From an uncultured Candidatus Saccharibacteria bacterium (GTDB lineage: Bacteria > Patescibacteriota > Minisyncoccia > Minisyncoccales > PEYH01), in the NCBI GenBank assembly GCA_964616145.1, contig CAZTRD010000001.1, forward strand, positions 4,024-68,023: a DNA stretch of 64,000 nucleotides, read 5' to 3'. How positions within the stretch are numbered: position 1 is the first letter of the stretch; each line of letters starts with the position of its first letter. Shown in pieces: positions 1,148 through 62,773 of the stretch. The notes below the pieces were generated by a model. The model did not search any database and was not told the origin of the DNA. It saw only the letters and a program-made list of their open reading frames with translations. The position numbers were made by a program, and so were the translations under genes.

Positions 1148-1873
1148 TTATTTTAAAATCCTTTCATGCGATTTCTTAGCTAGATAAGGCCTAGCTCTGA
1201 GATAAGACATGATAGGGATTAATACAAAAAATATATCTAATAATGACGGCCTGGGAAGGAAATACAAAATTCTGATTCCCACTAGTGATCCGTATATCAT
1301 TACAGTATAGAATTCATAGAATGATTCGGGATGATAAAAAGAGAATTTTCCGTCTCTTAAATCCTTTCTGAATATTATCAATGAGAGTATGACCATCAAA
1401 GAGATGAAGATAAAAATTACTGTTCCTTCTGGAATGGCGGTAGGAAGGGTAAGAAAGGGAATATCGTCTCTTTGTTGGAAGGTAGAACCTGTTACCAGCA
1501 TTACCGTGAAGAACAAGGCAACCAAACCGAACATGGAAAGAACTAATCTTTTCATGAATTTACTTCTTGTTACTAGAGATACGATATAGTAACCAGCTGC
1601 GATTGATTGCATTATCACGCAGGTATATTGGGGAATCGCCATTATCTCTGCCACGGATCCAGCATTGAATAGCATAACAGCGCCCCAAGCTAAAGCTGTA
1701 AAAAGATAGAAGCCATAACCTCCCAACCAGAATATTGTCAGCGCTTTTCTATGCGGGCTATCTTTTGCAGGAATTTTTCTCAAAAAGTATATTACTAGAA
1801 CACAACAAAGAGCGATAAAAAACTGGGCCATTATCGCCTGCGGAGTAGCTTCAAGAATTTCTGTTGATACCAT
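1148..1873 (-). CDS. Polytopic membrane protein, uncharacterised family (upstream copy of the tandem paralogue pair)
   Basis: 241-aa ORF, colinear with 422-1147 over its full length with the same conserved blocks. Confidence 0.6.
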   Translation of the reverse strand: MVSTEILEATPQAIMAQFFIALCCVLVIYFLRKIPAKDSPHRKALTIFWLGGYGFYLFTALAWGAVMLFNAGSVAEIMAIPQYTCVIMQSIAAGYYIVSLVTRSKFMKRLVLSMFGLVALFFTVMLVTGSTFQQRDDIPFLTLPTAIPEGTVIFIFISLMVILSLIIFRKDLRDGKFSFYHPESFYEFYTVMIYGSLVGIRILYFLPRPSLLDIFFVLIPIMSYLRARPYLAKKSHERILK

Positions 1874-1926
1874 TCTTGAATTATATCATCTAAAATCAAT
1901 TTCCGAAATTACAATACATCTATATA

Positions 1927-2580
1927 TTAAGATTTTGTGCAAATAAACGCTGACTCTGTGCCAATATTTGAACGGAATTTAATGAATGATGGAAAGGCAA
2001 TATTTATATACGTCCAATGATCAATCACATTAAATCCTAGTCCTTTTAATAGATCTAATACATTCTTGTGAGAAAAGAGCGAAATATGGTGTTCTTTTTC
2101 ATCGGCGCGAGAAAAAATCTTTTCCCTAAGCCAATTAGCATTGGGGGTATTTATATAAAAAATCCCATTCGTCTTTAAAACCCTCCTTATATTATTCAAG
2201 AGAAGGGTAGGATTTTCTAAATGTTCGATTACATCATTGCATATTACTATATCAAAAAAATCCTTTTCAAAAGGTAGGTCTTTTTCGGCTTCTTGAGCTA
2301 TTAAAGCTGCTCCAGGAATTCTTTGTTTGGCCTTTGATATCGCATAATCTGAAATATCTATCCCGAATTTTTCAAATGACTCAGGAAATTTTTGCAACAT
2401 AAACCCATAGGCGCAACCAATGTCTAAAACCCTTCCGCGTTTAATTTCTTTTAAATATGGCTTTAACGGTTTAAAAAGATTTTTAAAGTAAAATTTCTGG
2501 AATCTTCCGTAGCCAAAAAGATAGAAAAACGAACCTTTTCCCTTGAAATACTTTTCCGTATAGATTTCCTTATAATCCAT
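1927..2580 (-). CDS. Class I SAM-dependent methyltransferase
   Basis: 217 aa. Motif I is VLDIGCAYG, followed by GIDISD and DIVICNDVIEHLENP. Confidence 0.75.
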   Translation of the reverse strand: MDYKEIYTEKYFKGKGSFFYLFGYGRFQKFYFKNLFKPLKPYLKEIKRGRVLDIGCAYGFMLQKFPESFEKFGIDISDYAISKAKQRIPGAALIAQEAEKDLPFEKDFFDIVICNDVIEHLENPTLLLNNIRRVLKTNGIFYINTPNANWLREKIFSRADEKEHHISLFSHKNVLDLLKGLGFNVIDHWTYINIAFPSFIKFRSNIGTESAFICTKS

Positions 2581-2843: not shown

Positions 2844-2856
2844 ATTTTTTAATTAG

Positions 2857-2927
2857 TGGACCTGGTGAGAATCGAACCCACATCACTGCAATGCGAATGC
2901 AGCGCTCTACCATTAAGCTACAGGCCC
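2857..2927 (-). tRNA. tRNA-Ala (anticodon CGC), no encoded CCA
   Basis: Reverse complement is GGGCCTGTAGCTTAATGGTAGAGCGCTGCATTCGCATTGCAGTGATGTGGGTTCGATTCTCACCAGGTCCA. It folds as a cloverleaf with anticodon loop TTCGCAT, the G3:U70 alanine identity pair and a TTCGATT T-loop. Confidence 0.9.
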
Positions 2928-2931
2928 TTTA

Positions 2932-3411
2932 TTACGGAAAAACTACTCTTATCCTAATAACTGCATCTCTCTTTGAATGTATGAAATTAGCTTTGCCTTT
3001 ATATACTTTCTTAATCTTTTTGGCAAGCTGATTTATCATCTGATTCTGAGTTACGGTAACCCTTACCATTCCTCTGGCAATTTCATCAATTGTTATTACC
3101 CTGGCCATCGGATCATTCTTAAAAGATATGTTTCCGAAATTAGCAACCAGGTTTTTAATCTCTTCATTTTTCTCTGAAGGGATATTTTCCAGTATCAATT
3201 CTCCCTCGTATTTCCCTTCATCCTGCATTTTGCAGGCAGGGCAGATAACCATTTTAACATTTCTGTCTTCTTCCAGATTAGGATGATCATCCAAAGAATG
3301 ATGCCATGTCTTATACCAATAGGCAGCATTGCATTCTTTGCATAGAAGAATATCGGCTTTAGCGCTTTTCTCTAAATGAAATGGCGTATTTTTATTAAAG
3401 AAATTGGCCAT
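2932..3411 (-). CDS. Zn-ribbon protein, uncharacterised (two CxxC pairs)
   Basis: 159 aa with CKEC...CPAC. An NMD3-like or BCAM0308-like fold is possible but could not be verified without a search. Confidence 0.45.
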   Translation of the reverse strand: MANFFNKNTPFHLEKSAKADILLCKECNAAYWYKTWHHSLDDHPNLEEDRNVKMVICPACKMQDEGKYEGELILENIPSEKNEEIKNLVANFGNISFKNDPMARVITIDEIARGMVRVTVTQNQMINQLAKKIKKVYKGKANFIHSKRDAVIRIRVVFP

Positions 3412-3491: not shown

Positions 3492-4625
3492 ATGACTAAA
3501 AAAATACTATTTTCAATCCTGGCAATTTTTCTTTTTTTAGGATTTTTTAATCAGGCATTTGGTATAGAAAACGTAGAGATTAATTTCTTTGAAAAACCGG
3601 GCTGCCCTCATTGCAAAGACGAACAAGGATTTTTAAAGGATCTGAAAGTAAAATATCCTCAGATACAGATAAATGAATATTCTGTTTTAGTAGAAAACAA
3701 TGTAAAAAAATGGGAGGAACTATGTGTTCAGTATAATGTGGAAAAATGTTTGGGCGTTGTGCCGGTAACTTTCGTAAATGATAAATTCTTCTTGGGATTT
3801 GATAACAAAGATGGCATGGGAAGAGAAATAGAGAATGCAGCAAGAGAGGATCTAGGGCTTCCTTCGCTGGATTCTTCTGGCGGACTATATCTTCCTATCA
3901 TCGGAAGAATTGATTTAAGTAAATTCTCATTGCCAGTATTAGCTGTGGTTTTAGGATTTTTTGACGGATTCAATGTATGCTCTTTAGGGGCGTTGGTTTT
4001 AATTTTAAGCATGATTCTTGCCTTAAAATCAAGAAGGAGAATCTTAATCTTCGGAGGGACCTTTATCATTACCACTGCTGTAATATACGGATTATTGATC
4101 TTTCTGTGGTACAAGGTGTTTTCCGTATTTGAAAACTATCTAGGAGCATTGCAGATATTGATAGGGATAATTTCTTTTGCCGGAGCTATGTATTTCTTTA
4201 GACAATTCCTTAAATTCAGGAAGCAAGGACCTGCTTGCGATATGCAGAATCGAGGAATTTCTGCAAAATTAAGCAAACATGTTTCCAATTCTTTTGAAAA
4301 ATCATTAAATACATTTGCATTAATAGGAATAGTTTTGCTTTTTGCTTTTGTCATCACCATAGTAGAATTTCCATGCTCCGCTGCCATTCCTGTAGTTTTT
4401 GCCGGAACACTAACTAATGCAAGTCTTTCTGCGGGAATGCATTTCCTATACATATTAATATATATTGTTTTCTATCTCTTGGACGAATTATTGGTTTTCC
4501 TTATCGCTGTCTTCACGATGAAGCTTTGGCTAGCTTCAAATAGGTTTGTAATCTGGAGTGCTTTAGCTACTTCAATAGTTCTTCTCTTAATGTCCGGCTA
4601 CTATATCCTCGGATTAATTTCTTAA
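3492..4625 (+). CDS. Thioredoxin/glutaredoxin-fold domain (CPHC) fused to a CcdA/DsbD-like thiol-disulfide transporter membrane domain
   Basis: 377 aa with a signal peptide, then FFEKPGCPHCKDE. A multi-helix membrane domain follows, with Cys in helices (FNVCSLGA, EFPCSAAIP) as in the DsbD/CcdA family. Confidence 0.6.
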   Translation: MTKKILFSILAIFLFLGFFNQAFGIENVEINFFEKPGCPHCKDEQGFLKDLKVKYPQIQINEYSVLVENNVKKWEELCVQYNVEKCLGVVPVTFVNDKFFLGFDNKDGMGREIENAAREDLGLPSLDSSGGLYLPIIGRIDLSKFSLPVLAVVLGFFDGFNVCSLGALVLILSMILALKSRRRILIFGGTFIITTAVIYGLLIFLWYKVFSVFENYLGALQILIGIISFAGAMYFFRQFLKFRKQGPACDMQNRGISAKLSKHVSNSFEKSLNTFALIGIVLLFAFVITIVEFPCSAAIPVVFAGTLTNASLSAGMHFLYILIYIVFYLLDELLVFLIAVFTMKLWLASNRFVIWSALATSIVLLLMSGYYILGLIS

Positions 4626-4662
4626 AAGAAAAAGGGGGCTCGTGCACAAATGCCGAGACCCC
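4624..4662 (-). terminator. Intrinsic terminator (minus strand)
   Basis: Minus strand reads GGGGTCTCGGCATTTGTGCACGAGCCCC followed by CTTTTTCTTTT. The stem is 8 bp plus 3 bp, GC-rich, with one bulge. Confidence 0.7.
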
Positions 4663-4865
4663 GTTGCCATGGGGGGGGCAGAGTTCTCTCTCTTGTCGTG
4701 CTCTTCTCTCCGCCGCGAAGGTTTGACGTGACAAGGAGAAGGCGGTCTCAGCCCCCCGAATAACGCGTGGGTCGTGGATTCCACCGACGCGTTGGTCCCT
4801 TCTTGGCCGGGACCCACCAATGTGCTCGTCCCCGGACGAGCGGTTGTCGTTCTCGTCGTCTAAGG
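4624..4865 (-). ncRNA. GC-rich structured RNA of unknown class (about 240 nt)
   Basis: About 60% GC (by eye) against an AT-rich background. Helices seen: 4635-4642/4654-4662, 4673-4683/4747-4757, 4763-4768/4787-4792, 4794-4799/4809-4814, 4824-4830/4835-4841. The strand is inferred from the hairpin plus T-run that reads as a terminator only on the minus strand. No credible ORF. The 5' end is uncertain. Confidence 0.55.
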
Positions 4866-4920
4866 TATATCAATATGGTAATAAAAAGAAGGGACCTTGT
4901 AAAGACCCTTTTTGATTTTG

Positions 4921-4991
4921 TCGGGGTGCAGAGATTTGAACTCTGACTAAATCCTCCCGAAGGACTCGTGCTACCGTTACACTACACCCCG
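4921..4991 (-). tRNA. tRNA-Pro (anticodon CGG), no encoded CCA
   Basis: Reverse complement is CGGGGTGTAGTGTAACGGTAGCACGAGTCCTTCGGGAGGATTTAGTCAGAGTTCAAATCTCTGCACCCCGA. Anticodon loop TTCGGGA with G37; the acceptor stem pairs fully. Confidence 0.9.
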
Positions 4992-4996
4992 GAAAA

Positions 4997-6457
4997 TTAA
5001 GAGACCCAATATTTCTGCTTGGTCATTTCATCTCTTTTTCCAACTACCTGTCCGATTTTATCTTTAGCAATTTTTGAAAGTTTTCCTAATCTCTGCTCAT
5101 CTATCTGTCCTAATTCTTTTATTTTAGATTCTAAGTATTTCTTATCATTATTCTTCGGATCATTTAAAACTTCGGATAATAGAATGCTTAAAATCCAACC
5201 TATTCTCGGACCAGGAGATGTTTTTAATATCTCCATTATATCTTTTCCATCTATTTTCAATTTTGAAGCATCTATTGGATCTTGAGAAACTTTTTCAACT
5301 ATATACATGAAATGCCTTAATTTGTATGGCATTGCTTTCGGACAGCCAGAACCAATCCTATCACAAGTTCTTAATTGAACAAGTTCGTCCAGATTTTCTT
5401 TTCCTACATTTAACAACAGGCGCCTGACAGATGATTCTGTCACTTCTTGAGCATCATAGTAGAAAAGATGATAGCGGACAAGCTTTACAATCTTTTCTAT
5501 TTCTTTATTGGAAAATCTTAAACGGATAAGAATTTGCTTGGTCATTTTGGCTCCCATTGTTTCATGGCCGTAGAAAGTGGAATCCTTCCCTTTCCCTGCT
5601 TTAGTTCTTGGCTTGGCAACATCATGCAATAAAGCTGAAATCCTTACATACTTGTTATATTCTTTCTGAGCTGCGTAATCTAAAGACCTTAAAGAATGAT
5701 CATATACATCATATAAATGATGCTTATTCTGTCCTACCTTATATCCTTCCAACAATTCAGGAATAACATGCTTTAATAATTCTGTTTCTCTCAATAATTC
5801 TATTCCTGAAGATGGATTCTTTGACATTATTAATTTTACGAATTCATCCCTTATTCTTTCTTGAGAAACGTGTTTCAAAAGAGATGAGTTGTCTTTGATT
5901 GCTTTATAGGTTTTAGTTTCTATCTTAAAATCCAAAGCGGCTGCTAATCTTACAGCTCTCATCAAGCGCAAAGCATCTTCTTTAAATCTATGATCAGGGT
6001 TTCCAACTGCTTTGATTATTTTGGCTTTTAAATCCTTCTGGCCCGAGAAAGGATCTATTATCTCCCATTTATTATCCTTGAGTTTTAAAGCGATGGCGTT
6101 GATCGTGAAATCTCTTCTGGATAGATCCGCTTCTATTGTTTCTGCCCAAGACACCTTATCAGGATGTCTTTTGTCTGTATATTTCTCTTCTGTCCTGAAA
6201 GTGGTAATTTCTATCTCTTTTAAGTTTTCTTCTTTGCTTTTGGTAAAAACCCTGACTGTGCCAAAAGTGTTGTCTGTGTAATTTTTAGGGAATATTTTAG
6301 AAATCTCTTCGGGAGTGGCTGATGTTGTAATATCCCAGTCATTAGGAGTGACATTTTGTAAATAGTCCCTTACGCATCCGCCAACGATAAAGGCCTGGAA
6401 TTTTTTCTTTTCCAATTTCCCTATTATTTCTATTATTTCCTTCGGAACTTTCATCAT
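4997..6457 (-). CDS. cca: CCA-adding tRNA nucleotidyltransferase (PolyA_pol head plus HD domain)
   Basis: 486 aa. The N-terminus has FIVGGCVRDYLQNVTPNDWDITT; also RRDFTINA and an HD region (LLHDVAKP). Confidence 0.85.
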   Translation of the reverse strand: MMKVPKEIIEIIGKLEKKKFQAFIVGGCVRDYLQNVTPNDWDITTSATPEEISKIFPKNYTDNTFGTVRVFTKSKEENLKEIEITTFRTEEKYTDKRHPDKVSWAETIEADLSRRDFTINAIALKLKDNKWEIIDPFSGQKDLKAKIIKAVGNPDHRFKEDALRLMRAVRLAAALDFKIETKTYKAIKDNSSLLKHVSQERIRDEFVKLIMSKNPSSGIELLRETELLKHVIPELLEGYKVGQNKHHLYDVYDHSLRSLDYAAQKEYNKYVRISALLHDVAKPRTKAGKGKDSTFYGHETMGAKMTKQILIRLRFSNKEIEKIVKLVRYHLFYYDAQEVTESSVRRLLLNVGKENLDELVQLRTCDRIGSGCPKAMPYKLRHFMYIVEKVSQDPIDASKLKIDGKDIMEILKTSPGPRIGWILSILLSEVLNDPKNNDKKYLESKIKELGQIDEQRLGKLSKIAKDKIGQVVGKRDEMTKQKYWVS

Positions 6458-6601: not shown

Positions 6602-7429
6602 ATGAAAAAAATACTTATTGCATTATTCATAACTATTATTCTTGGTTCTGTTTTATTGCCGGTTTTTAATATAAATGCGGCAGACGATCCTTGTGCATAT
6701 AGTGGAAAGGATCAATTGTCTTGCTCTTACGTAGATGGAGATGGGGTAACTCGCACGGCGACATACAAGCCAGGGGGAAGGTGTAGCTTATGTTGCAAAA
6801 AAGCTGGTTTAATGGTGTGTGGCTGGCCAGGATGTGAATGTCGTCTTTGCGACTTTTTTATACTGATAGACCATTTAATTGATTTTGCAATCTTAAAAAT
6901 TGCTCCCATTGCTGCTGTACTTTTGATAATAATAGGCGGAGTCATGTTTATGATAAGCAGTGGAGATCCAGGGAAGGTGACAAGGGCTAAAAACATAATT
7001 ATTTCTGTGGTTATGGGACTTGCCATTATATATAGTTCGTATATGATTGTGGGATTAATCCTAAAAAGCGTGGGCTTGGCAGGATGGACATCGGAAATGT
7101 ACGGTTCTTGGATAAACAATGGAGTATTTGAGATTGATTGTGGTGATGATAGCGGTTCTTCTGGATCAGGCAGTGGTTCTGGATCGGGAACGGGTAGTGG
7201 TGCCTCTGGGTCTGGATCAGGCAGTGGTTCTGGAGCAGGAAGCGGAGCTGACGATATTACTACTTTTTGCAATAGTTTTACCGCAGAAGAGAAAAAATCT
7301 TGCAATATTTATACTCGTAACAAAATGAGCGAATGCGCCAATAATCCTTGCCATGCTAATAGCGATTCTACCGGAAGGTGTTATCCAGAAAGAAATGGTT
7401 CTCTCTGGAGGTGTATTGATGTTAATTAG
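6602..7429 (+). CDS. Secreted Cys-rich protein with a VirB2/TrbC-like (CPR 'T4SS pilin') two-helix module, a (GS)n linker and a Cys-rich C-terminal knob
   Basis: 275 aa with a signal peptide and 10 Cys before the module. The module is IAPIAAVLLIIIGGVMFMISSGDPGKVTRAKNIIISVVMGLAIIYSSYMIVG, the same as in the 23135 and 26332 ORFs. A GSGSGSGTGSGASGSGSGSGSGAGSG linker follows. Confidence 0.6.
   Translation: MKKILIALFITIILGSVLLPVFNINAADDPCAYSGKDQLSCSYVDGDGVTRTATYKPGGRCSLCCKKAGLMVCGWPGCECRLCDFFILIDHLIDFAILKIAPIAAVLLIIIGGVMFMISSGDPGKVTRAKNIIISVVMGLAIIYSSYMIVGLILKSVGLAGWTSEMYGSWINNGVFEIDCGDDSGSSGSGSGSGSGTGSGASGSGSGSGSGAGSGADDITTFCNSFTAEEKKSCNIYTRNKMSECANNPCHANSDSTGRCYPERNGSLWRCIDVN
7150..7255 (+). 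repeat. Coding low-complexity (Gly-Ser) repeat with a 24-nt direct repeat
   Basis: tctggatcaggcagtggttctgga occurs at 7160-7183 and again at 7211-7234, inside the 6602-7429 CDS. Confidence 0.8.
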
Positions 7430-28082: not shown

Positions 28083-28547
28083 CTATTCATTAGGCCTGAT
28101 AACAATTCTTCTATTTTCGCCTTCCCCTACGCTCTCTGTAGAAACATCTTTTCTTTCCTTTAAAAGCATGTGAATAATCCTTCTTTCATATGAAGGCATA
28201 GGTTCTAATTCTTTATCTCTTTTATTCAAAGAAACTTCATCTGCTGTGACTTGAGCTAATTCTTTTAAGAAAACTGTTTTCCTCTTCTTATAGTCATTTA
28301 TATCCAAGCTAAGCTTAATCTCATCTCCGGCAATCTTTTTAGCAATCTTAGTTAAAATATGCTGAAGCATGCCTAGTGTTTCTCCTTTTTTGCCAATTAA
28401 AACCTGGGGGTCTTCCAATTTGATAGACAGAAGTATTGTTTCTTGATCATCATCTAATTCTACTCTTGTATCTCCGGGAAATCCTGTTTTATCAAAGAAA
28501 ATATCAGCTTGCTTTTGGATTTTTCTCAATAGTTCCTTTTTGTCCAT
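28083..28547 (-). CDS. jag: Jag/KhpB-like RNA-binding protein (KH plus R3H)
   Basis: 154 aa with LIGKKGETLGMLQHIL (KH) and EPMPSYERRIIHMLL...NRRIVIRP (R3H). Located downstream of yidC. Confidence 0.8.
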   Translation of the reverse strand: MDKKELLRKIQKQADIFFDKTGFPGDTRVELDDDQETILLSIKLEDPQVLIGKKGETLGMLQHILTKIAKKIAGDEIKLSLDINDYKKRKTVFLKELAQVTADEVSLNKRDKELEPMPSYERRIIHMLLKERKDVSTESVGEGENRRIVIRPNE

Positions 28548-29235
28548 GTTTTTCTATATTTTTATACAATAATTTTTGTTGGAGAATTCCGAATACTGTA
28601 AATACGCAATAGTATAGGGCCAAAGCTGATGGCCATCTGAAAAGAAGGAATACAATCAATGCGGATAACCCGTAACTTATGAATTTCTGTGAATTGTTGG
28701 TCTGCGGGGTTTTCTTCATCATCATTCTAATCTGAACTATCTGCAAAAGTCCAGCCAGAATAGCCAAAAACGGATTGGGCTTGCTTAAGTCTATTATTCC
28801 CAGAAATGTTGTTGTGATTATCTCTGGTTTTGGAATGAATCCATACAGCAAAGACATGTTGGATGCGTTGAAAACATCATTAAACATTCTATACATTGCT
28901 ATCAGAATAGGCCATTGCAAAAACATCATCAGGATCCCAGCAAAAGGATTTATTTCCTGGCTTTTATACAACTTCATCATCTCTTCTGCCTGCTTTTGCT
29001 TGTCGTTTTTATACTGTTTCTCTATTTCTTTAATCTTTGGTTGAAGAACCTGTAATACTGATTGCGCTCTTATCGCTTTTCTCTGTAAAGGCCACAAAAG
29101 AAGCATGATAAGGATAGTGAGTAAGATGATTGCAAAACCTAGATCATGACCAGTAACATAGACATAAAAAAAGACCAGTAAATTAAATAGTGGCTGCTTG
29201 ATAATTATTCTGAATAAATCACTTAAAAAGGACAT
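28504..29235 (-). CDS. yidC: Membrane protein insertase YidC/Oxa1 family (short form)
   Basis: 243 aa with LLWPLQRKAIRAQSVLQVLQPKIKEIEKQYKNDKQKQAEEMMKLYKSQEINPFAG and conserved rnpA-yidC-jag synteny. Confidence 0.85.
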   Translation of the reverse strand: MSFLSDLFRIIIKQPLFNLLVFFYVYVTGHDLGFAIILLTILIMLLLWPLQRKAIRAQSVLQVLQPKIKEIEKQYKNDKQKQAEEMMKLYKSQEINPFAGILMMFLQWPILIAMYRMFNDVFNASNMSLLYGFIPKPEIITTTFLGIIDLSKPNPFLAILAGLLQIVQIRMMMKKTPQTNNSQKFISYGLSALIVFLLFRWPSALALYYCVFTVFGILQQKLLYKNIEKHGQKGTIEKNPKAS

Positions 29236-29236
29236 A

Positions 29237-29560
29237 TTATTTTGATAAGATTTCTTCTAGTTTATCTTTTAATTGATTGTAAGAATATTTTTCAACACCT
29301 TTTAAAGCAAACACTACAATATCTTTGCCAGAAAGGGATTTAATGGATTGCCTTGCGGCATTCCTTAATCTCCTCTTTAAAAGGTTTCTTTTATTGGCCT
29401 TTGGTTCTATTTTTTTAGAAACAACGAATGCCATTCTGGCAATGGGAAGACTATTTCCTTTGTATTTCATTAATAGGCATCCTTTTCTAACACTTCTTCC
29501 TTTTTTACAAACATCTTCTAAGCCATCCTTTTTTGTAAGGCGGTTTATCTTAGAAAGCAT
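29237..29560 (-). CDS. rnpA: Ribonuclease P protein component
   Basis: 107 aa: RLTKKDGLEDVCKKGRSV...RMAFVVSKKIEPKANKRNLLKRRLRNA. Located downstream of rpmH. Confidence 0.85.
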   Translation of the reverse strand: MLSKINRLTKKDGLEDVCKKGRSVRKGCLLMKYKGNSLPIARMAFVVSKKIEPKANKRNLLKRRLRNAARQSIKSLSGKDIVVFALKGVEKYSYNQLKDKLEEILSK

Positions 29561-29561
29561 T

Positions 29562-29696
29562 TTACTTTGATAATTTTTTTCTGCCTTTTGATCTTCTGCT
29601 TTTTAGAACACTTCTACCATTCTTTGTAGACATACGTTTTCTGAACCCATGGGTTTTCTTGCCTTTGCGGATTTTCTTTTTAGCTAAAGTGACCAT
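29562..29696 (-). CDS. rpmH: 50S ribosomal protein L34
   Basis: Own translation (44 aa, below the ORF-track cutoff): [44 protein letters not shown]. Confidence 0.9.
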
Positions 29697-29794
29697 ATTT
29701 ATTTCTGTGTTTAATTATAGATTAGTATACACTTCAAAAATTCTTTGGTCAAACATTGCAAAAATAGTAATAAGGAGTATAAAGAATTAACATT

Positions 29795-29814
29795 TTATCC
29801 ACAGTTTATGCACA
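29795..29814 (+). promoter_or_regulatory. Two adjacent DnaA boxes upstream of dnaA
   Basis: TTATCCACA at 29795-29803 (perfect consensus) and TTATGCACA at 29806-29814 (one mismatch). Confidence 0.75.
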
Positions 29815-29835
29815 TAGGGTCCATTCCATGCTAGT

Positions 29836-29864
29836 TTGTATTGTATTTTTACCTTAACTATAAT
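29836..29864 (+). promoter_or_regulatory. Putative dnaA promoter (TTGTAT-17 nt-TATAAT)
   Basis: -35 at 29836-29841 and -10 at 29859-29864. The first ATG (29870) lies only 6 nt after the -10 element, so either the mRNA is leaderless or the real start is the ATG at 29882. Confidence 0.35.
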
Positions 29865-29869
29865 GAAAG

Positions 29870-31228
29870 ATGCTAAATACTATGAATAAAGAAGAGCTCT
29901 GGCAATTCGTTTTAACACAAATCCAACTGGCTATCTCTCCTGCTAATTTTGCGACGTGGTTTAAAAATACTGAAGTTGTTGATATCGAAAAGGATTTAGC
30001 CATTATTTCTGTTCCAAGCAATTTTTCGAAGGAATGGCTTGAAAAGAAATACGGCAAATTAATCTTGAAGATTTTAAGAGAGTTAAACGATTCTATCAAA
30101 AAAATAGAATTCAAAGTAAATCCCGCTGGGCAGCAAAAATCCTCTCATCAAAAATCTGTCTTGATCTCTCCGGATCAATTGAAGTTTGAAGATTTTTGTT
30201 TAGATAAGGAAAGCAATTTAAATCCGAAATATACTTTTTCCAATTTTATCGTTGGCCCATTCAATGAATTGGCTCAAGCTGCTGCTTGGGCTATCAGTGA
30301 AAACCCTGGAACAATGTATAATCCGTTTTTCATATACGGAGGTGTAGGGTTAGGTAAAACTCATTTAATTCAAGCGGTGGGGAATAAGATAATGTCTACC
30401 TATCCAGAAAAGAAAGTGAGATACACGACAACTGAAAGATTTACTACTGAAGTAATCAATTCGATTAGAAATCAAAGCATTGAAAAATTAAAGGAAACTT
30501 ATAGAAGATTTGATATTTTAATCGTTGACGATATACAGTTTCTATCCGGGAAAGAAAAAACCCAGGAAGAATTCTTTCATCTATTCAACGCCTTGTATGA
30601 AAGCAATAAGCAGATAATTATTTCTTCAGACAGACCGCCTCAAGCGATTTCCGCCCTAGAAGAAAGATTGAGATCAAGATTTGAGGGAGGAATGATTGCA
30701 GACGTAGGTTCTCCAGATCTAGAAAGCAGAATTGCCATTTTAAAACAGAAGGTCCAGGAAAAGAATTTGAATATAGATAACGAGATTCTGGAATACATAG
30801 CTCAAAACATACAAAACAATATCAGGCAACTGGAAGGTACTTTAAATCGCTTAGCCGCATTTCAAAAATTAGGTACTCAATCATTAAATTCTGAAATGGC
30901 TAAGAAATTATTGAGAAAGATAATACAGCCAGAACAAAAAAGAGCCAGCTATCAGAAAATAATTCAATCTGTAGCAGATTTTTATAGTATGAATCCTAAG
31001 GACTTATTCCAAAATTCCCGCAAGAAAGAAATTGTCAGACCAAGGCAAATAGCTATGTATTTCTTGAGAAAGGAGGTTAGCTATTCATTCCCATATATCG
31101 GCAAGAAATTCGGAGGTAAGGACCACACAACAGCCATTTACGCATTTGAGAAAGTGTCGCATGAGATAGAGCAAAATGAAATTCTGGCTCAAGAGATAAG
31201 TTCAATCAGAGAGAAATTATATAATTAA
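29870..31228 (+). CDS. dnaA: Chromosomal replication initiator protein DnaA
   Basis: 452 aa with Walker A GGVGLGKTHL, ILIVDDIQFL, and the domain IV motif RPRQIAMYFLR...GGKDHTT. An ATG at 29882 is an alternative start. Confidence 0.95.
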   Translation: MLNTMNKEELWQFVLTQIQLAISPANFATWFKNTEVVDIEKDLAIISVPSNFSKEWLEKKYGKLILKILRELNDSIKKIEFKVNPAGQQKSSHQKSVLISPDQLKFEDFCLDKESNLNPKYTFSNFIVGPFNELAQAAAWAISENPGTMYNPFFIYGGVGLGKTHLIQAVGNKIMSTYPEKKVRYTTTERFTTEVINSIRNQSIEKLKETYRRFDILIVDDIQFLSGKEKTQEEFFHLFNALYESNKQIIISSDRPPQAISALEERLRSRFEGGMIADVGSPDLESRIAILKQKVQEKNLNIDNEILEYIAQNIQNNIRQLEGTLNRLAAFQKLGTQSLNSEMAKKLLRKIIQPEQKRASYQKIIQSVADFYSMNPKDLFQNSRKKEIVRPRQIAMYFLRKEVSYSFPYIGKKFGGKDHTTAIYAFEKVSHEIEQNEILAQEISSIREKLYN

Positions 31229-53121: not shown

Positions 53122-53173
53122 AAAACTAGTACAAAAAACTTCTCCCTAACCAGGGAAAGGGGGTGATTCAGAA

Positions 53174-53386
53174 TTGGTGAGAGCAAGAACGGGAAAAAGG
53201 TGTTGGTGGTTGAGGCGGCAGCGAAGAAGATATATCACCTATCTCTTCCCTTGCCACCTCTCGGCTCTTGAGCAGATCGCCAGATTACAGGGAACTACGG
53301 TCGCTGATCTACTGGCCCGATCCCTCGACGAGTATCTGGTTGAGACAGGAGTACACGATGGACCCAACAGGGGCAAGGAGAAGTAG
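53174..53386 (+). CDS. Ribbon-helix-helix (CopG/Arc/MetJ-like) DNA-binding protein with an Arg-rich N-terminal tail; GC-rich foreign-looking gene
   Basis: 70 aa. RRYITYLFPCHLSALEQIARLQGTTVADLLARSLDEYL fits the strand-helix-helix pattern. A strong SD (AAAGGGGGTGA) sits 6 nt before the TTG/GTG start. Codon third positions are GC-rich, unlike the neighbouring genes. Confidence 0.6.
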   Translation: MVRARTGKRCWWLRRQRRRYITYLFPCHLSALEQIARLQGTTVADLLARSLDEYLVETGVHDGPNRGKEK

Positions 53387-53397
53387 AGTAGACACAG

Positions 53398-53434
53398 GGG
53401 GTGGTGACGTTAAAGACTGATCCACCCCATTTTC
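53398..53434 (+). terminator. Hairpin plus T-run after the RHH gene
   Basis: GGGGTGG (53398-53404) pairs with CCACCCC (53422-53428) around a 17-nt loop, followed by ATTTTC. Confidence 0.4.
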
Positions 53435-53479
53435 ACCTCCCCATTTTATCCTAATAGTAATCGGTATTTCGCTTATAGC

Positions 53480-62336: not shown

Positions 62337-62404
62337 CTGGTCAGCCCTTATTTGATTGTTGATTATTACTCTTTTAAAAATATTATTCTATTTAATTATC
62401 TTAA

Positions 62405-62773
62405 GTGGAGGTGCCGGGAATTGAACCCGGATCCAACGTATTTACCAAAATACATCTACAGAAATATCCAGTTTGTATAGAAACATAGCTTTAAAGCTGG
62501 CAAAAAGCCATATTTCTTCCCTTGAATTTTCAATAGCGTCTGCTAGGGGAGCAGAAGCTATCTATCCTGAAGTATGGCACCCGTATCTACCTATCAGGAA
62601 TCAGTAGGCGGATGGTCTAATTAGACAAAGCTAATCAGACACGCTTACGCCAAAGCGTAAGCGGGGGTTGCAAAAAAGTTGGCACTTAGTTGCGTTTCTG
62701 ATTGTTTAGCCAGCACCCAGAAAGCTGGTTCTGCATATTTTGACAAGGTACGCTGTCGAAACCGATCACCCCC
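62405..62773 (-). ncRNA. ssrA: tmRNA (SsrA), no encoded CCA
   Basis: 5' GGGGGTGATCGGTTTCGACAGCG... and 3' ...GGATCCGGGTTCAATTCCCGGCACCTCCA. The acceptor stem has the G3:U pair. The tag frame ...GCC AAC TTT TTT GCA ACC CCC GCT TAC GCT TTG GCG TAA (ANFFATPAYALA*) ends with its stop inside the hairpin CGCTTACGC-TTTG-GCGTAAGCG. Adjacent to smpB. Confidence 0.9.

Follow-up and report, generated by a model that had tools for sequence, protein, structure and literature searches.

Our analysis of a 64-kb window (the whole stretch of DNA studied here) points to a small RNA (sRNA) gene on the minus strand, predicted from promoter and terminator signals to run from ~4868 to ~4626 (~245 nt). It is very probably a real, independently transcribed gene, belonging to a new and narrow family. 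As the best explanation as a whole, to which we assign a probability of roughly 0.45, we propose a stand-alone sRNA gene whose product acts as a cis-antisense RNA on the convergent membrane-protein gene. The cis-antisense mechanism itself, with the 3' UTR of the convergent gene as partner, is the most likely role of the RNA and is put forward tentatively. The preliminary description of this DNA had called the element a stand-alone structured noncoding RNA of an unrecognized class; conserved predicted promoter and terminator signals, compensatory changes in the 5' hairpin H1 and the lack of a matching Rfam family agree with that view. The locus is arranged as follows.

3492–4625, plus strand: convergent membrane-protein gene, 377 aa, with an N-terminal glutaredoxin/thioredoxin-like domain
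4624–4634, minus strand: U-tract CUUUUUCUUUU, the predicted 3' end, which abuts or overlaps by 0–2 nt the stop codon of the convergent gene (4623–4625)
4635–4662, minus strand: terminator stem-loop GGGGUCUCG-GCAUUUGUGCA-CGAGCCCC, from fold prediction
4875–4880, minus strand: predicted −10 box TACCAT (TATTAT or TATCAT in relatives; consensus TAYYAT)
4898–4903, minus strand: −35 box TTTACA from a promoter scan, identical in the related lineages L001, L082 and L085
4891–4908, minus strand: hairpin GGGTCTTTACAAGGTCCC and, after it, a T-run reaching about 4881, flagged as terminator-like by a terminator scan
4920–4991, minus strand: tRNA-Pro(cgg) (ARAGORN; Rfam tRNA, 61 bits), 55 nt upstream of the element and in the orientation of cca, as the preliminary description had placed it
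4997–6457, minus strand: cca, with PolyA_pol, HD and tRNA_NucTran2_2 domains; tRNA-Pro sits downstream of it

The GC island at 4624–4868 is the longest and strongest across the window, whose overall GC content is 0.361. Measured in 100-nt windows, 4650–4849 reaches 0.61–0.66 GC against 0.26–0.45 in the flanks; four-fold sites in the window stand at 0.31 and other intergenic stretches at 0.24–0.43. Only short ORFs occur in the element, mostly with TTG or GTG starts and none exceeding 68 aa, and the compositional spike without a credible ORF that had been noted by eye is upheld. We reject a small-protein reading, since no ORF is conserved in frame or strand between the homologues and an ATG ORF of L082/L091 is missing in the other lineages. 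An intergenic position, a predicted promoter and terminator of its own and no coding potential, the generic marks of a stand-alone bacterial sRNA gene, are all found in the sequence.

The best-conserved block of the locus is the promoter, CTTTACAA.G.C..TT.TTT.TA.TA..ATAT. The tRNA-Pro transcript appears to end at the hairpin at 4891–4908, which also has the −35 box of the sRNA promoter in its loop; this loop, CTTTACAA, is invariant in four lineages, and the stems vary. The spacer between the −35 and −10 boxes is always 17 nt, in keeping with a sigma-70-type promoter conserved in four lineages, and the promoter geometry predicts a transcription start near 4868. At the opposite end, the hairpin at 4635–4662 is followed by CTTTTTCTTTT on the minus strand only, the one strand on which, as previously stated, it reads as a terminator. 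The terminator slot holds a GC-rich hairpin of differing sequence in every one of the five lineages, at a conserved position. No gene lies downstream of the element on the minus strand, the next gene (3492–4625, plus strand) being convergent, and the earlier judgment that a riboswitch was unlikely for want of a following gene is borne out. A riboswitch or leader, which would precede its gene on one strand and include a highly conserved aptamer, is rejected on this convergent arrangement, the lack of a conserved block of at least 6 nt and the lack of an Rfam match.

Homologues, in the same place and on the same strand, were found in only four other lineages (L001/L081/L095, L082/L091, L085 and L084; five lineages in total), all from one Paceibacteria clade, in all collections searched, with RNA lengths of 196–247 nt. 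A second, independent assembly of the same strain carries an identical element. In a synteny search through cca across 80 species genomes, the element appeared only in the closest relative (90% cca identity); in most of the other genomes cca, tRNA-Pro and tRNA-Ala lie close together, with a Pro–Ala spacer that is short or filled by unrelated inserts, and no analogous RNA was seen in the 240–390-nt tRNA-Pro/tRNA-Ala spacers of other lineages, none of which is GC-rich or similar. Scanning metagenomes for the 23-base promoter pattern yielded two true matches, L091 and L095; the other 12 represent an unrelated terminator-promoter of an AT-rich organism, several of them from human-gut assemblies. 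Searches of viral contigs with the H1 and H3 patterns returned chance matches in GC-rich phages, none fitting the family profile, and blastn against phage and plasmid collections returned nothing meaningful. With the nhmmer profile, the syntenic copy was the only match in the window, and 857 kb of related loci (108 loci) gave no other. Two more distant relatives lack the element: in L083 the convergent genes lie 35 nt apart, and in L086 the membrane gene has a same-strand downstream neighbor across an AT-rich 500-nt gap. The search of relatives suggested in the preliminary description yielded homologues and compensatory changes in H1, in five lineages of one clade that keep only some of the helices. 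A family this tiny, evolving at a synonymous rate, is not a widely conserved class.

Despite 31% GC at four-fold sites, the element has kept a GC content of 53–60% in the five lineages. Its identity between lineages is 0.45–0.54, compared with 0.40–0.72 at the four-fold sites of neighboring genes (72% for the closest pair, 40–58% for the others); identity is no higher than at four-fold sites, and the sequence changes at roughly the rate of synonymous sites. No sequence block or k-mer of at least 6 nt is common to all lineages. Eleven pentamers are: ACGAG, CCCCC, CCTTC, CTCCT, GAGAG, GGACG, TCCTT, TCGCG, TCTGC and two terminator words. L001 and L081, with ~98% overall identity, show 2–3 differences in 208 nt of the element, no fewer than in the flanks; set against about 2% overall, this led us to reject unusual variability of the element in near-identical L001-group strains. 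A supported interpretation of these comparisons is that the element is under selection for GC-rich pairing and transcription signals, and not for the sequence itself.

All the helices named in the preliminary description are present in the sequence. From 5' to 3', and ahead of the terminator, the predicted RNA contains the following parts.

4847–4868, minus strand: purine-rich 5' leader GACGACGAG (GGRGACRAA in relatives)
4818–4846, minus strand: H1, the 5' hairpin, with core GCUCGUC-CGGG-GACGAGC (4824–4841), from a hand-made pair table
4794–4814, minus strand: H2, GGUCCC-GGCCAAGAA-GGGACC, a structure that is not conserved
4763–4792, minus strand: H3, ACGCGU..GGUGG-AAU-CCAC..ACGCGU, from fold and sequence
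4673–4757, minus strand: H4, a long irregular helix GGGGGGCTGAG/CTCTGCCCCCC, closed by GGGGGGCUGAG/CUCUGCCCCCC

Minimum free energy (MFE) and centroid predictions fold each of the five sequences into a series of local hairpins. H1, the terminator and the outer part of H4 are kept, H3 occurs in two lineages only and H2 is not conserved. H3 is found in the window and in the L001 group, where its outer stem reads UGUGC/GCACA, and is absent in L082/L091 and L085; in the H2 region of L001, the homologous GAAGGA pairs with another partner. The outer helix of H4 is kept with changed sequence (GGGGUGCCGAGC/GCUCGGCCCCC in L001, GGGGCUAAG/CUUAGCCCC in L082), around an interior of about 63 nt in the window, about 35 in L001 and 33–45 in L082/L091. 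Within H4, the inner partners CCGCC/GGCGG, CTTCTC/GAGAAG and CTTGTC/GACAAG share one 5'-to-3' order, which keeps the three pairs from all nesting and makes them mutually exclusive, as had been proposed. Full-RNA MAFFT alignments were unreliable in the 3' half and in H1 of L085, and H1 was therefore tabulated by hand. In this table, which rests on four independent sequences, 10 of the 14 pairs vary and 5 have changed on both sides (compensatory); some of the lower stem is disrupted in the window copy. The leader partly duplicates the 3' arm of H1, a GGACGA-like motif being repeated in the two, and can form an alternative helix with the H1 5' arm (RNAalifold). In this helix 88% of cells are paired, versus 27–47% when it is slid, four pairs have changed on both sides, and the nascent RNA is predicted to form it in all four lineages.

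The window copy has a modest folding excess (z = −2.2 for the transcript, −3.8 with flanks), the weakest of the family; the homologues reach z = −5.1 to −7.2. The plus strand folds too (z = −2.0 to −5.9), and in the window copy it is slightly the more stable (−100.7 versus −95.8 kcal/mol). One could argue that there is no separate sRNA, and that the element is a plus-strand 3' UTR or terminator of the membrane-protein gene, or a passive hairpin buffer between convergent units; its place in every lineage is right behind that gene, and on the plus strand the complement of H1, with a U-rich tract after it, resembles a terminator. We consider this improbable, as the −35/17/−10 promoter with its invariant hairpin loop faces the opposite way, and U-tract terminators are found on the minus strand only in every lineage. 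The relatives' H1 includes six G–U pairs, which equal A–C mismatches on the plus strand and fit the minus strand only, and z-scores favor the minus strand in 5 of 5 sequences, absolute energies in 4 of 5. This reading also sits poorly with the 35-nt gap between the convergent genes of element-free relatives, and no other copy of the hairpins exists in the window or the 108 loci. REP/BIME sequences are similar to the element in placing GC-rich hairpins in the gap of two convergent transcription units, but REPs are short and occur in many copies per genome, the element carries its own predicted promoter, and a REP/BIME-like repeat is rejected given a single syntenic copy in the window and none elsewhere in the 108 related loci.

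Alternatively, the element may be decaying foreign GC-rich DNA or another non-functional remnant. Evolution at about the neutral rate or faster, differences between L001 and L081 no less frequent in the element than in the flanks, a very narrow distribution and a window copy with weakened H1 and low z-score would all fit this account. We judge it quite improbable because 53–60% GC persists against an equilibrium near 31% GC, with four-fold identity at 40–58% (72% for the closest pair), and folding z-scores of −5 to −7 persist together with compensatory changes in H1 and a conserved promoter and terminator. A second GC island in the same window, at 53130–53440, shows no excess folding (z = 0.07); high GC by itself thus does not yield the folding signal of the element, and foreign GC alone gives z near 0. 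Lacking excess structure and having a weak RHH ORF match, this island is rejected as a paralogue of the element.

What could be the function of such an RNA? In the cis-antisense model that we favor, transcription would begin at the RNA's own sigma-70-type promoter, whose −35 box lies within the loop of the tRNA-Pro terminator hairpin, and would stop at the intrinsic terminator, where the U-tract touches the stop codon of the convergent membrane-protein gene. The resulting RNA would consist of the purine-rich leader, H1, variable middle hairpins, H4 and the terminator. The membrane-protein mRNA would read into the sRNA gene, encountering no canonical terminator until well inside or beyond it: past the stop codon, the only terminator-like sites on the plus strand are a weak one at 4664–4681 and the complement of H1 at 4823–4842, which would give an sRNA–mRNA overlap of no less than 60 nt and perhaps ~220 nt. 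The sRNA and the 3' UTR of this mRNA would be perfect antisense partners, the two polymerases would converge, and the sRNA may thereby set the 3' end, stability or level of the mRNA, with duplex processing and transcriptional interference as possible routes. Cis action appears most likely since no conserved block offers a seed or protein site and the plus strand has no canonical terminator short of the interior of the sRNA gene. It would also account for the free drift of the sequence, because a cis-antisense pair stays complementary whatever mutates.

The element lies tail-to-tail with the same glutaredoxin/DsbD-like membrane-protein gene in 5 of 5 lineages, including L085, which has no upstream tRNA-Pro within the 240 nt that its contig covers, and this constancy speaks for cis-antisense action. 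So does an identity no higher than that of four-fold sites, as expected if shared DNA guarantees complementarity. The protein's Pfam Glutaredoxin match is weak; source names of its homologues include 'thiol-disulfide isomerase/thioredoxin' and 'glutaredoxin-related protein/cytochrome c biogenesis protein CcdA'. Several observations speak against a cis-antisense role. The five lineages are closely related, and the constant synteny may be simple inheritance; plain antisense needs neither GC-rich hairpins nor compensatory changes, and the conserved alternative pairing of leader and H1 is left unexplained; strong intramolecular folding would slow formation of the sRNA–mRNA duplex; and read-through from the membrane gene is deduced only from a missing good U-tract. 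Against the explanation as a whole, L083 and L086 manage without the RNA, and in the window copy folding is weakest and the H1 stem partly disrupted.

The geometry has precedents. GadY of Escherichia coli is a cis-encoded sRNA opposite the 3' UTR of gadX. As predicted for the element, it has a separate promoter, a tail-to-tail arrangement with a protein gene, complementarity to a 3' UTR, an intrinsic terminator and freedom to drift, but it is much shorter, Hfq-dependent and not a GC-rich multi-hairpin RNA, and the two share no sequence or structure homology; transcript overlap at the element is predicted only. In Bacillus subtilis, the type I antitoxin RNAs RatA (txpA) and SR4 (bsrG) overlap their partner mRNAs at the 3' end, base-pair with that part and trigger mRNA processing. 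They are likewise structured (~180–220 nt), convergent, lineage-restricted and fast-evolving. The partner of RatA or SR4 is a toxic peptide of fewer than 60 aa, whereas that of the element is a 377-aa glutaredoxin/DsbD-like membrane protein. A type I toxin–antitoxin system is rejected since the partner protein has widespread homologues and no small ORF is conserved. The GadY- or RatA-like layout, convergent and with the U-tract (4624–4634) touching the stop codon (4623–4625), is found in the window and equally in L081, L082, L084 and L085.

The main rival, doubtful in our view yet ahead of the others, is a trans-acting protein-binding scaffold, sponge or decoy, in which shape, stability and perhaps the GGAC/GGACGAR repeats matter. 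Such an RNA would explain why GC-rich pairing and excess folding are kept against an AT-biased background, why H1 changes are compensatory and two mutually exclusive 5' helices are conserved, and why a GGACGA-like motif recurs in the leader and the 3' arm of H1; it would also be expected to have the predicted promoter and terminator of its own, and a GC-rich RNA of L102/L083, described below, occupies the equivalent slot after tRNA-Phe, as stable RNAs often do. Yet no loop or single-stranded motif of at least 6 nt is conserved, H2 and H3 come and go among close relatives, divergence equal to or above that of synonymous sites is unusual for an RNA docking on a conserved protein, and the neighboring genes suggest no partner protein.

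A trans base-pairing sRNA, binding the Shine-Dalgarno (SD) sequences of target mRNAs through a CU-rich motif (CUCCUU or CCUUC), has little to recommend it. C-rich sRNAs of Firmicutes bind Shine-Dalgarno regions, CTCCT, TCCTT and CCTTC are among the 11 pentamers common to all five sequences, and one copy of the motif is predicted to be largely unpaired in L082/L091 (P = 0.6–1.0). Among the 58 ORFs of at least 120 aa in the window, however, just one has a GGAG/GAGG-type motif ahead of the first start codon, and AT-rich sequence prevails upstream; because the genes of the window are essentially without SD sequences, an anti-SD seed is rejected as unlikely. In the copies of the window and L001, moreover, the motif is paired (P unpaired 0.0–0.2); it lies at non-homologous positions between lineages, and its partial complement GAGAG, also common to all, suggests an internal helix. 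When targets were predicted with duplexfold in the 58 start regions, the duplexes were unrealistic, containing very large loops, and the result was discarded.

Could the element be a universal RNA (6S, RNase P or SRP RNA) so divergent that covariance models miss it? It is about 200–250 nt long and GC-rich in an AT-rich genome, with its own predicted promoter, and an Rfam scan of the 64-kb window found none of the three. We regard this as highly improbable. The covariance-model scan that had been suggested was run with Rfam 15 (4227 models) on both strands and gave no match in 4624–4868, at gathering thresholds or at E ≤ 10, nor did the relatives L085, L082, L091 and L084 at E ≤ 10, and Rfam models found the tmRNA and tRNAs of the window normally. 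The fold is a string of hairpins, with no rod and central bubble, and none of the shared pentamers is known to belong to the P4 or helix-8 motifs. Universal RNAs, moreover, are not known to lose whole helices or diverge at synonymous speed between relatives with 90% cca identity. Two further features of the window bear on these families.

29237–29560: 107-aa ORF, candidate rnpA, between rpmH-like and yidC-like ORFs and beside a dnaA-like ORF
62403–62773: tmRNA, 114.9 bits

The names rnpA, rpmH, yidC and dnaA were read from translations and gene order, and on that basis the earlier mention of rnpA in the window fits. The exclusion of RNase P, SRP and tmRNA signatures by eye agrees with the scan. 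RNase P RNA, which has a conserved P4 core with the motifs CR-I, CR-IV and CR-V, is rejected, there being no model match and 196–247 nt against at least about 270 nt expected; SRP RNA, marked by a helix 8 with GNRA-type tetraloop and conserved symmetric and asymmetric loops, as neither the small nor the large bacterial model matches and the GGAA...AGCA helix-8 motif is absent; and tmRNA, with its tRNA-like domain and tag reading frame, because that of the window lies elsewhere. 6S RNA (RF00013 and related models), an RNA that binds the sigma-70 holoenzyme and templates pRNA synthesis, resembles the element as predicted in length (~200 nt), own promoter, poorly conserved sequence and GC-rich pairing; it too is rejected, with no model match and a hairpin chain, not a closed rod with central bubble.

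Candidate Phyla Radiation bacteria are, as far as is known, uncultivated and have tiny genomes, and a full-text literature search found no paper on small RNAs in them. If the cis-antisense proposal is correct, the element would exemplify antisense control at the 3' end in these bacteria; if not, the RNA would be a candidate new structured family. With 58 ORFs of the window without SD sites, the classic mechanism of sRNAs that block the ribosome-binding site may not apply here. Hairpins that are kept while the sequence drifts at a synonymous rate would make a clean case of selection on RNA structure alone, and the element offers a concrete target for metatranscriptome mapping, although a family found in only a few close relatives promises a modest practical return.

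A further RNA lies in a comparable position in a sister lineage. Positions 1838–2040 of L102, identical in L083, hold a GC-rich structured RNA of ~190 nt (z = −4.95) that ends in a terminator, downstream of cca and tRNA-Pro and directly after tRNA-Phe and its promoter. Like the element, it is GC-rich, strongly folded, without an Rfam match (only hits far below threshold) and in the same neighborhood near the same membrane-protein gene, from which a PIG-L gene separates it; nhmmer detected no homology between the two. As it directly follows tRNA-Phe without a promoter of its own, it is probably co-transcribed with it. One may speculate, as a long shot, that the element represents a new RNA class under shape-only selection, with a conserved two-state 5' domain (leader paired to the H1 5' arm, or H1) and a fast-changing H4 tip, that serves in conflict or recognition (decoy, immunity or guide-like) in episymbiotic Patescibacteria, with analogous, non-homologous RNAs such as that of L102 in the same tRNA-linked slot of sister lineages. 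Between L082 and L091, change is concentrated at the tip of H4: of their 19 differences in 1.8 kb, 18 lie within 20 nt of it.

Composition, transcription signals and comparison with relatives suggest, with a probability we place near 0.8, that the GC-rich element at 4624–4868 is a single-copy, lineage-restricted small RNA (sRNA) gene on the minus strand, with its own promoter and terminator and a hairpin-rich product. The GC spike claimed in the preliminary description is present: the element has 60% GC and the whole window 36%, and in 100-nt windows the fraction is 0.61–0.66 over 4650–4849 versus 0.26–0.45 on both sides, making this the longest and strongest GC island within the 64 kb. Four-fold degenerate sites of the window's genes have 31% GC, and other intergenic stretches 24–43%. 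That no credible ORF is present also holds, the element's ORFs all being short, with unconvincing starts, and none conserved. Its neighbours are:

2856–2927, minus strand, tRNA-Ala(cgc)
2932–3411, minus strand, NMD3-like ORF of 159 aa with CxxC pairs and a Pfam match
3492–4625, plus strand, membrane-protein ORF of 377 aa, convergent with the element, with a weak glutaredoxin match
4920–4991, minus strand, tRNA-Pro(cgg), between cca and the element
4997–6457, minus strand, cca, with PolyA_pol, HD and tRNA_NucTran2_2 domains

Homologues of the 377-aa ORF are named thiol-disulfide isomerase or CcdA-like in their sources. The NMD3 match lies just above the Pfam cut-off (E = 5e-6); NMD3 is a eukaryotic and archaeal ribosome-export adaptor, and in several Patescibacteria loci (L081, L083, L103–L107) the ORF is conserved as a neighbour of the membrane gene or of cca/tRNA-Pro.

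Upstream of the element is a hairpin with a variable stem and an invariant loop, CUUUACAA, followed by a T-run. TTTACA lies inside the loop with TAYYAT exactly 17 nt on, and a promoter scan flagged the window copy (TTTACA, 17 nt, TACCAT; 4903–4875). Nothing else at the locus is as well conserved as this promoter block, CTTTACAA.G.C..TT.TTT.TA.TA..ATAT. The hairpin and T-run appear to double as the terminator of tRNA-Pro; in the relative L085 the promoter hairpin follows a different upstream sequence, and the 240 nt that the contig holds upstream contain no tRNA. The predicted RNAs, 196–247 nt long with 53–60% GC, begin with a purine-rich leader (GGRGACRAA in relatives, GACGACGAG in the window) and end, in each lineage, with a GC-rich hairpin of differing sequence and a U-tract, which in the window runs up to the convergent gene's stop codon (4623–4625). 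The terminator that the preliminary description assigned to the minus strand, a hairpin followed by CTTTTTCTTTT, is correct on that strand alone.

Does the element belong to a known family? Rfam 15, which detected five tRNAs and tmRNA (62403–62773) within the window, gave zero matches to the element on either strand, both at gathering thresholds and at E ≤ 10, and likewise none to its homologues; blastn against phage and plasmid collections returned chance matches only. RNase P, SRP and tmRNA had been ruled out by eye and a riboswitch deemed unlikely, and the element indeed fails every testable defining feature of these, as it does for 6S RNA and REP elements; a very divergent 6S, RNase P or SRP RNA is a minor alternative. 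At the sequence level the element has what defines a stand-alone sRNA gene. The general kind is thus known, and what is new is a narrow family within it; nothing shown calls for a system of a categorically different type. The finding is genuine, and the preliminary reading, a stand-alone structured ncRNA of unrecognised class, was essentially right.

Relatives were sought through the cca protein, giving 80 genomic loci, mostly from Paceibacterota, Nealsonbacteria and Staskawiczbacteria MAGs. In most, cca is followed by tRNA-Pro(cgg), in many tRNA-Ala(cgc) lies within 0.1–1.4 kb, and the sequence separating these tRNAs varies, with unrelated inserts. The cluster of cca and tRNA-Pro(cgg), in many loci with tRNA-Ala(cgc), is widely conserved in Patescibacteria (loci L001–L067); the variable Pro–Ala spacer spans 0 to about 2 kb, with HAD-type hydrolase-like ORFs (by eye) in L011 and L013 and, in L034, a small ORF together with a pseudo-tRNA-like stretch. 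Among the 80 loci a homologue of the element was found only in the closest relative, L001 (cca 90% identical; nhmmer E = 8e-11 for the element). A membrane-protein search followed by examination of the contigs added L081, about 98% identical to L001 and with a nearly identical element; L082 and L085, which carry the element and whose membrane proteins are 85% and 67% identical; and L084 (67%), whose contig ends after the 3' part of the element. Scanning metagenomes with the conserved promoter pattern added a strain of L082 (L091) and one of L001 (L095); the other 12 matches represent an unrelated locus in an AT-rich organism, several coming from human-gut assemblies. The window's own strain has also been assembled independently in Logan, and that assembly matches the whole element without a difference, so the sequence is not an assembly artefact. 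When a profile of five full-length element sequences was searched against the window and 857 kb of related loci, it recovered known members only and no second copy in the window; none was found in viral contigs. The element is absent from L083 and L102 (membrane protein 63%, cca 79% identical), where a PIG-L gene is convergent with the membrane gene at a distance of just 35 nt, and from L086 (membrane protein 52%), where an AT-rich gap follows the membrane gene and the gene called next shares that gene's strand. Homologues thus exist in related Patescibacteria, and, given these absences and the narrow profile matches, the family is confined to five lineages of one narrow clade.

The element diverges about as fast as synonymous positions (identity over aligned positions of the element, then at four-fold sites of neighbouring genes):

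Window versus L001 group: 0.53; 0.51–0.58
L001 group versus L082: 0.54; 0.72
Any lineage versus L085: 0.45–0.49; 0.40–0.44

Indels are frequent, and no k-mer of at least 6 nt is common to all five element sequences. Given this identity and lack of shared words, the primary sequence is under essentially no constraint, yet the element keeps its GC content, hairpins, promoter and terminator. Neutral drift should have dropped the element toward the 31% GC of four-fold sites, which counts against one of the smaller rivals, a decaying foreign fragment. The pentamers common to all five are ACGAG and GGACG (words of hairpin H1), the CU-rich CTCCT, TCCTT and CCTTC, GAGAG (a partial complement of the CU-rich words), CCCCC, TCGCG, TCTGC and two terminator words. 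That CUCCUU and CCUUC are shared could suggest a trans-acting anti-Shine–Dalgarno (SD) seed, but this is unlikely because the window's ORFs are essentially without SD sequences (a GGAG/GAGG-type motif precedes the first start codon in 1 of 58 ORFs of at least 120 aa, and upstream regions are AT-rich) and because base pairing is predicted to occupy the motif in the L001 and window copies. From these upstream regions, the organism appears to initiate translation independently of SD sequences.

Every hairpin listed in the preliminary description is found in the sequence. In a hand-made table of the 14 pairs of H1 (4818–4846) across four lineages, 10 vary and five have changed on both sides, as in U-A to A-U (L082 versus L001) and C-G/G-C/U-A to G-C/U-A/G-C in L085; relatives have six G-U pairs, which on the opposite strand would turn into A-C mismatches. 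The lower stem of the window's H1 is interrupted by three mismatches. The middle hairpins are not conserved between lineages: the partners of H2 (4794–4814) differ between the window and L001, and H3 (4763–4792; GGUGG-AAU-CCAC) is limited to the window and the L001 group, its outer stems covarying (ACGCGU/ACGCGU and UGUGC/GCACA). H4 (4673–4757) is closed by G-run/C-run pairs, has an interior of about 33 to about 63 nt, and its inner closing stem differs in sequence and still pairs (GGGGGGCUGAG/CUCUGCCCCCC in the window, GGGGUGCCGAGC/GCUCGGCCCCC in L001, GGGGCUAAG/CUUAGCCCC in L082). Covariation in relatives, the lack of which was named as refuting the preliminary reading, is seen in H1; with only four independent sequences, all covariation evidence, here and for the leader helix below, is suggestive rather than statistical. 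Between L082 and L091, near-identical 1.8-kb contigs, 18 of 19 differences (6 substitutions and a 12-nt indel) fall within 20 nt at the tip of H4 (L082 1583–1603), which suggests either one complex event at the end of the hairpin or a site of locally frequent change; no such clustering was seen in the element within the L001 group.

Folding z-scores against dinucleotide shuffles (RNA strand, then opposite strand) were:

Window: −2.2; −2.0
L001: −6.6; −4.6
L082: −6.5; −5.9
L091: −7.2; −4.1
L085: −5.1; −4.3

The opposite strand is weaker in all five, and absolute folding energy favours the RNA strand in all except the window; a structured 3' UTR or buffer of the plus-strand gene, whose structure would lie on that opposite strand, is a smaller rival. 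The window's other GC island, 53130–53440, has z = 0.07, so GC content alone is not the source of the folding signal. This plus-strand island (0.55–0.59 GC) is intergenic, follows tRNA-Arg(ccg), has promoter-like and terminator-like flanks and no Rfam match; it includes a 70-aa TTG-start ORF (53174–53386) with a weak antitoxin-like ribbon-helix-helix match (E = 0.0011, below the curated cut-off) and probably represents a small protein gene of foreign origin, not an RNA.

RNAalifold on a MAFFT alignment, unreliable for the 3' half, returned an unexpected helix between the leader (4847–4868) and the 5' arm and loop of H1. The leader is a partial copy of the H1 3' arm and can pair with 4824–4846. 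In this helix 88% of cells are paired, versus 27–47% with the partner slid; four pairs have changed on both sides, all from L085, and the observed values were reached by only 1–6 of 500 shuffles. RNA transcribed as far as the H1 loop is predicted to form the leader:5'-arm hairpin in all four lineages (−8.2 to −18.7 kcal/mol), which the more stable complete H1 (−11.8 to −28.3) must displace, so that the modelled 5' domain has two mutually exclusive conserved helices.

What might such an RNA do? The best explanation, held tentatively, is that it pairs in cis with the mRNA of the convergent membrane gene, to which it lies tail-to-tail in an unchanging arrangement. Past the stop codon the only plus-strand terminator-like sites are 4664–4681 (weak) and the H1 complement at 4823–4842, so the mRNA should run antisense through 60–220 nt of the sRNA gene. 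A cis-antisense pair would stay complementary despite any mutation, and this guarantee fits the absence of conserved sequence alongside retained transcription signals; the hairpins would supply RNA stability and termination. In arrangement the element resembles 3'-overlapping cis-antisense sRNAs, among them GadY/gadX of E. coli and the RatA and SR4 antitoxin RNAs of B. subtilis. A type I toxin–antitoxin pair fails, since the partner is a conserved 377-aa membrane protein and a small ORF is absent. Counting against cis-antisense pairing, compensatory changes would not be needed, the two-state 5' domain is left unexplained, and synteny says little when the relatives are so close. The main rival, which we rate somewhat lower, is a stable protein-binding or scaffold RNA. 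The element merits a record as a candidate sRNA family in Paceibacteria, with a very narrow distribution and fast evolution.

In a sister lineage (cca 79% identical), L102 has a GC-rich RNA-like element of ~190 nt (1838–2040, plus strand), identical in L083 (about 4945–5150, minus strand). In both, cca and tRNA-Pro are followed by a strong TTGACA-N16-TATAAT promoter and then tRNA-Phe(gaa), directly 3' of which the element lies, ending in a terminator. It has z = −4.95, no Rfam match and no detectable homology to the window element; the words CUCGUC and GACGAG occur in both. Where its convergent membrane-protein and PIG-L genes meet, L083 has a direct repeat of about 38 nt in two tandem copies, ATAAGGCCTAACGTGGAGTAAACAAACCAAGGGGTAAG (4130–4215).

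Elsewhere in the window, 28504–31228 looks like a replication-origin neighbourhood, judged from translations and gene order:

28504–29235, minus strand, yidC-like ORF
29237–29560, minus strand, rnpA-like ORF
29562–29696, minus strand, rpmH-like ORF
29870–31228, plus strand, dnaA-like ORF, divergent

The GC-rich stretch at 7136–7270 is the long Gly-Ser repeat of a T4SS-pilin-like ORF (6602–7429, plus strand), and ORFs that resemble PrgI and other conjugation or type IV secretion proteins are located around 19.7–20.2 kb.
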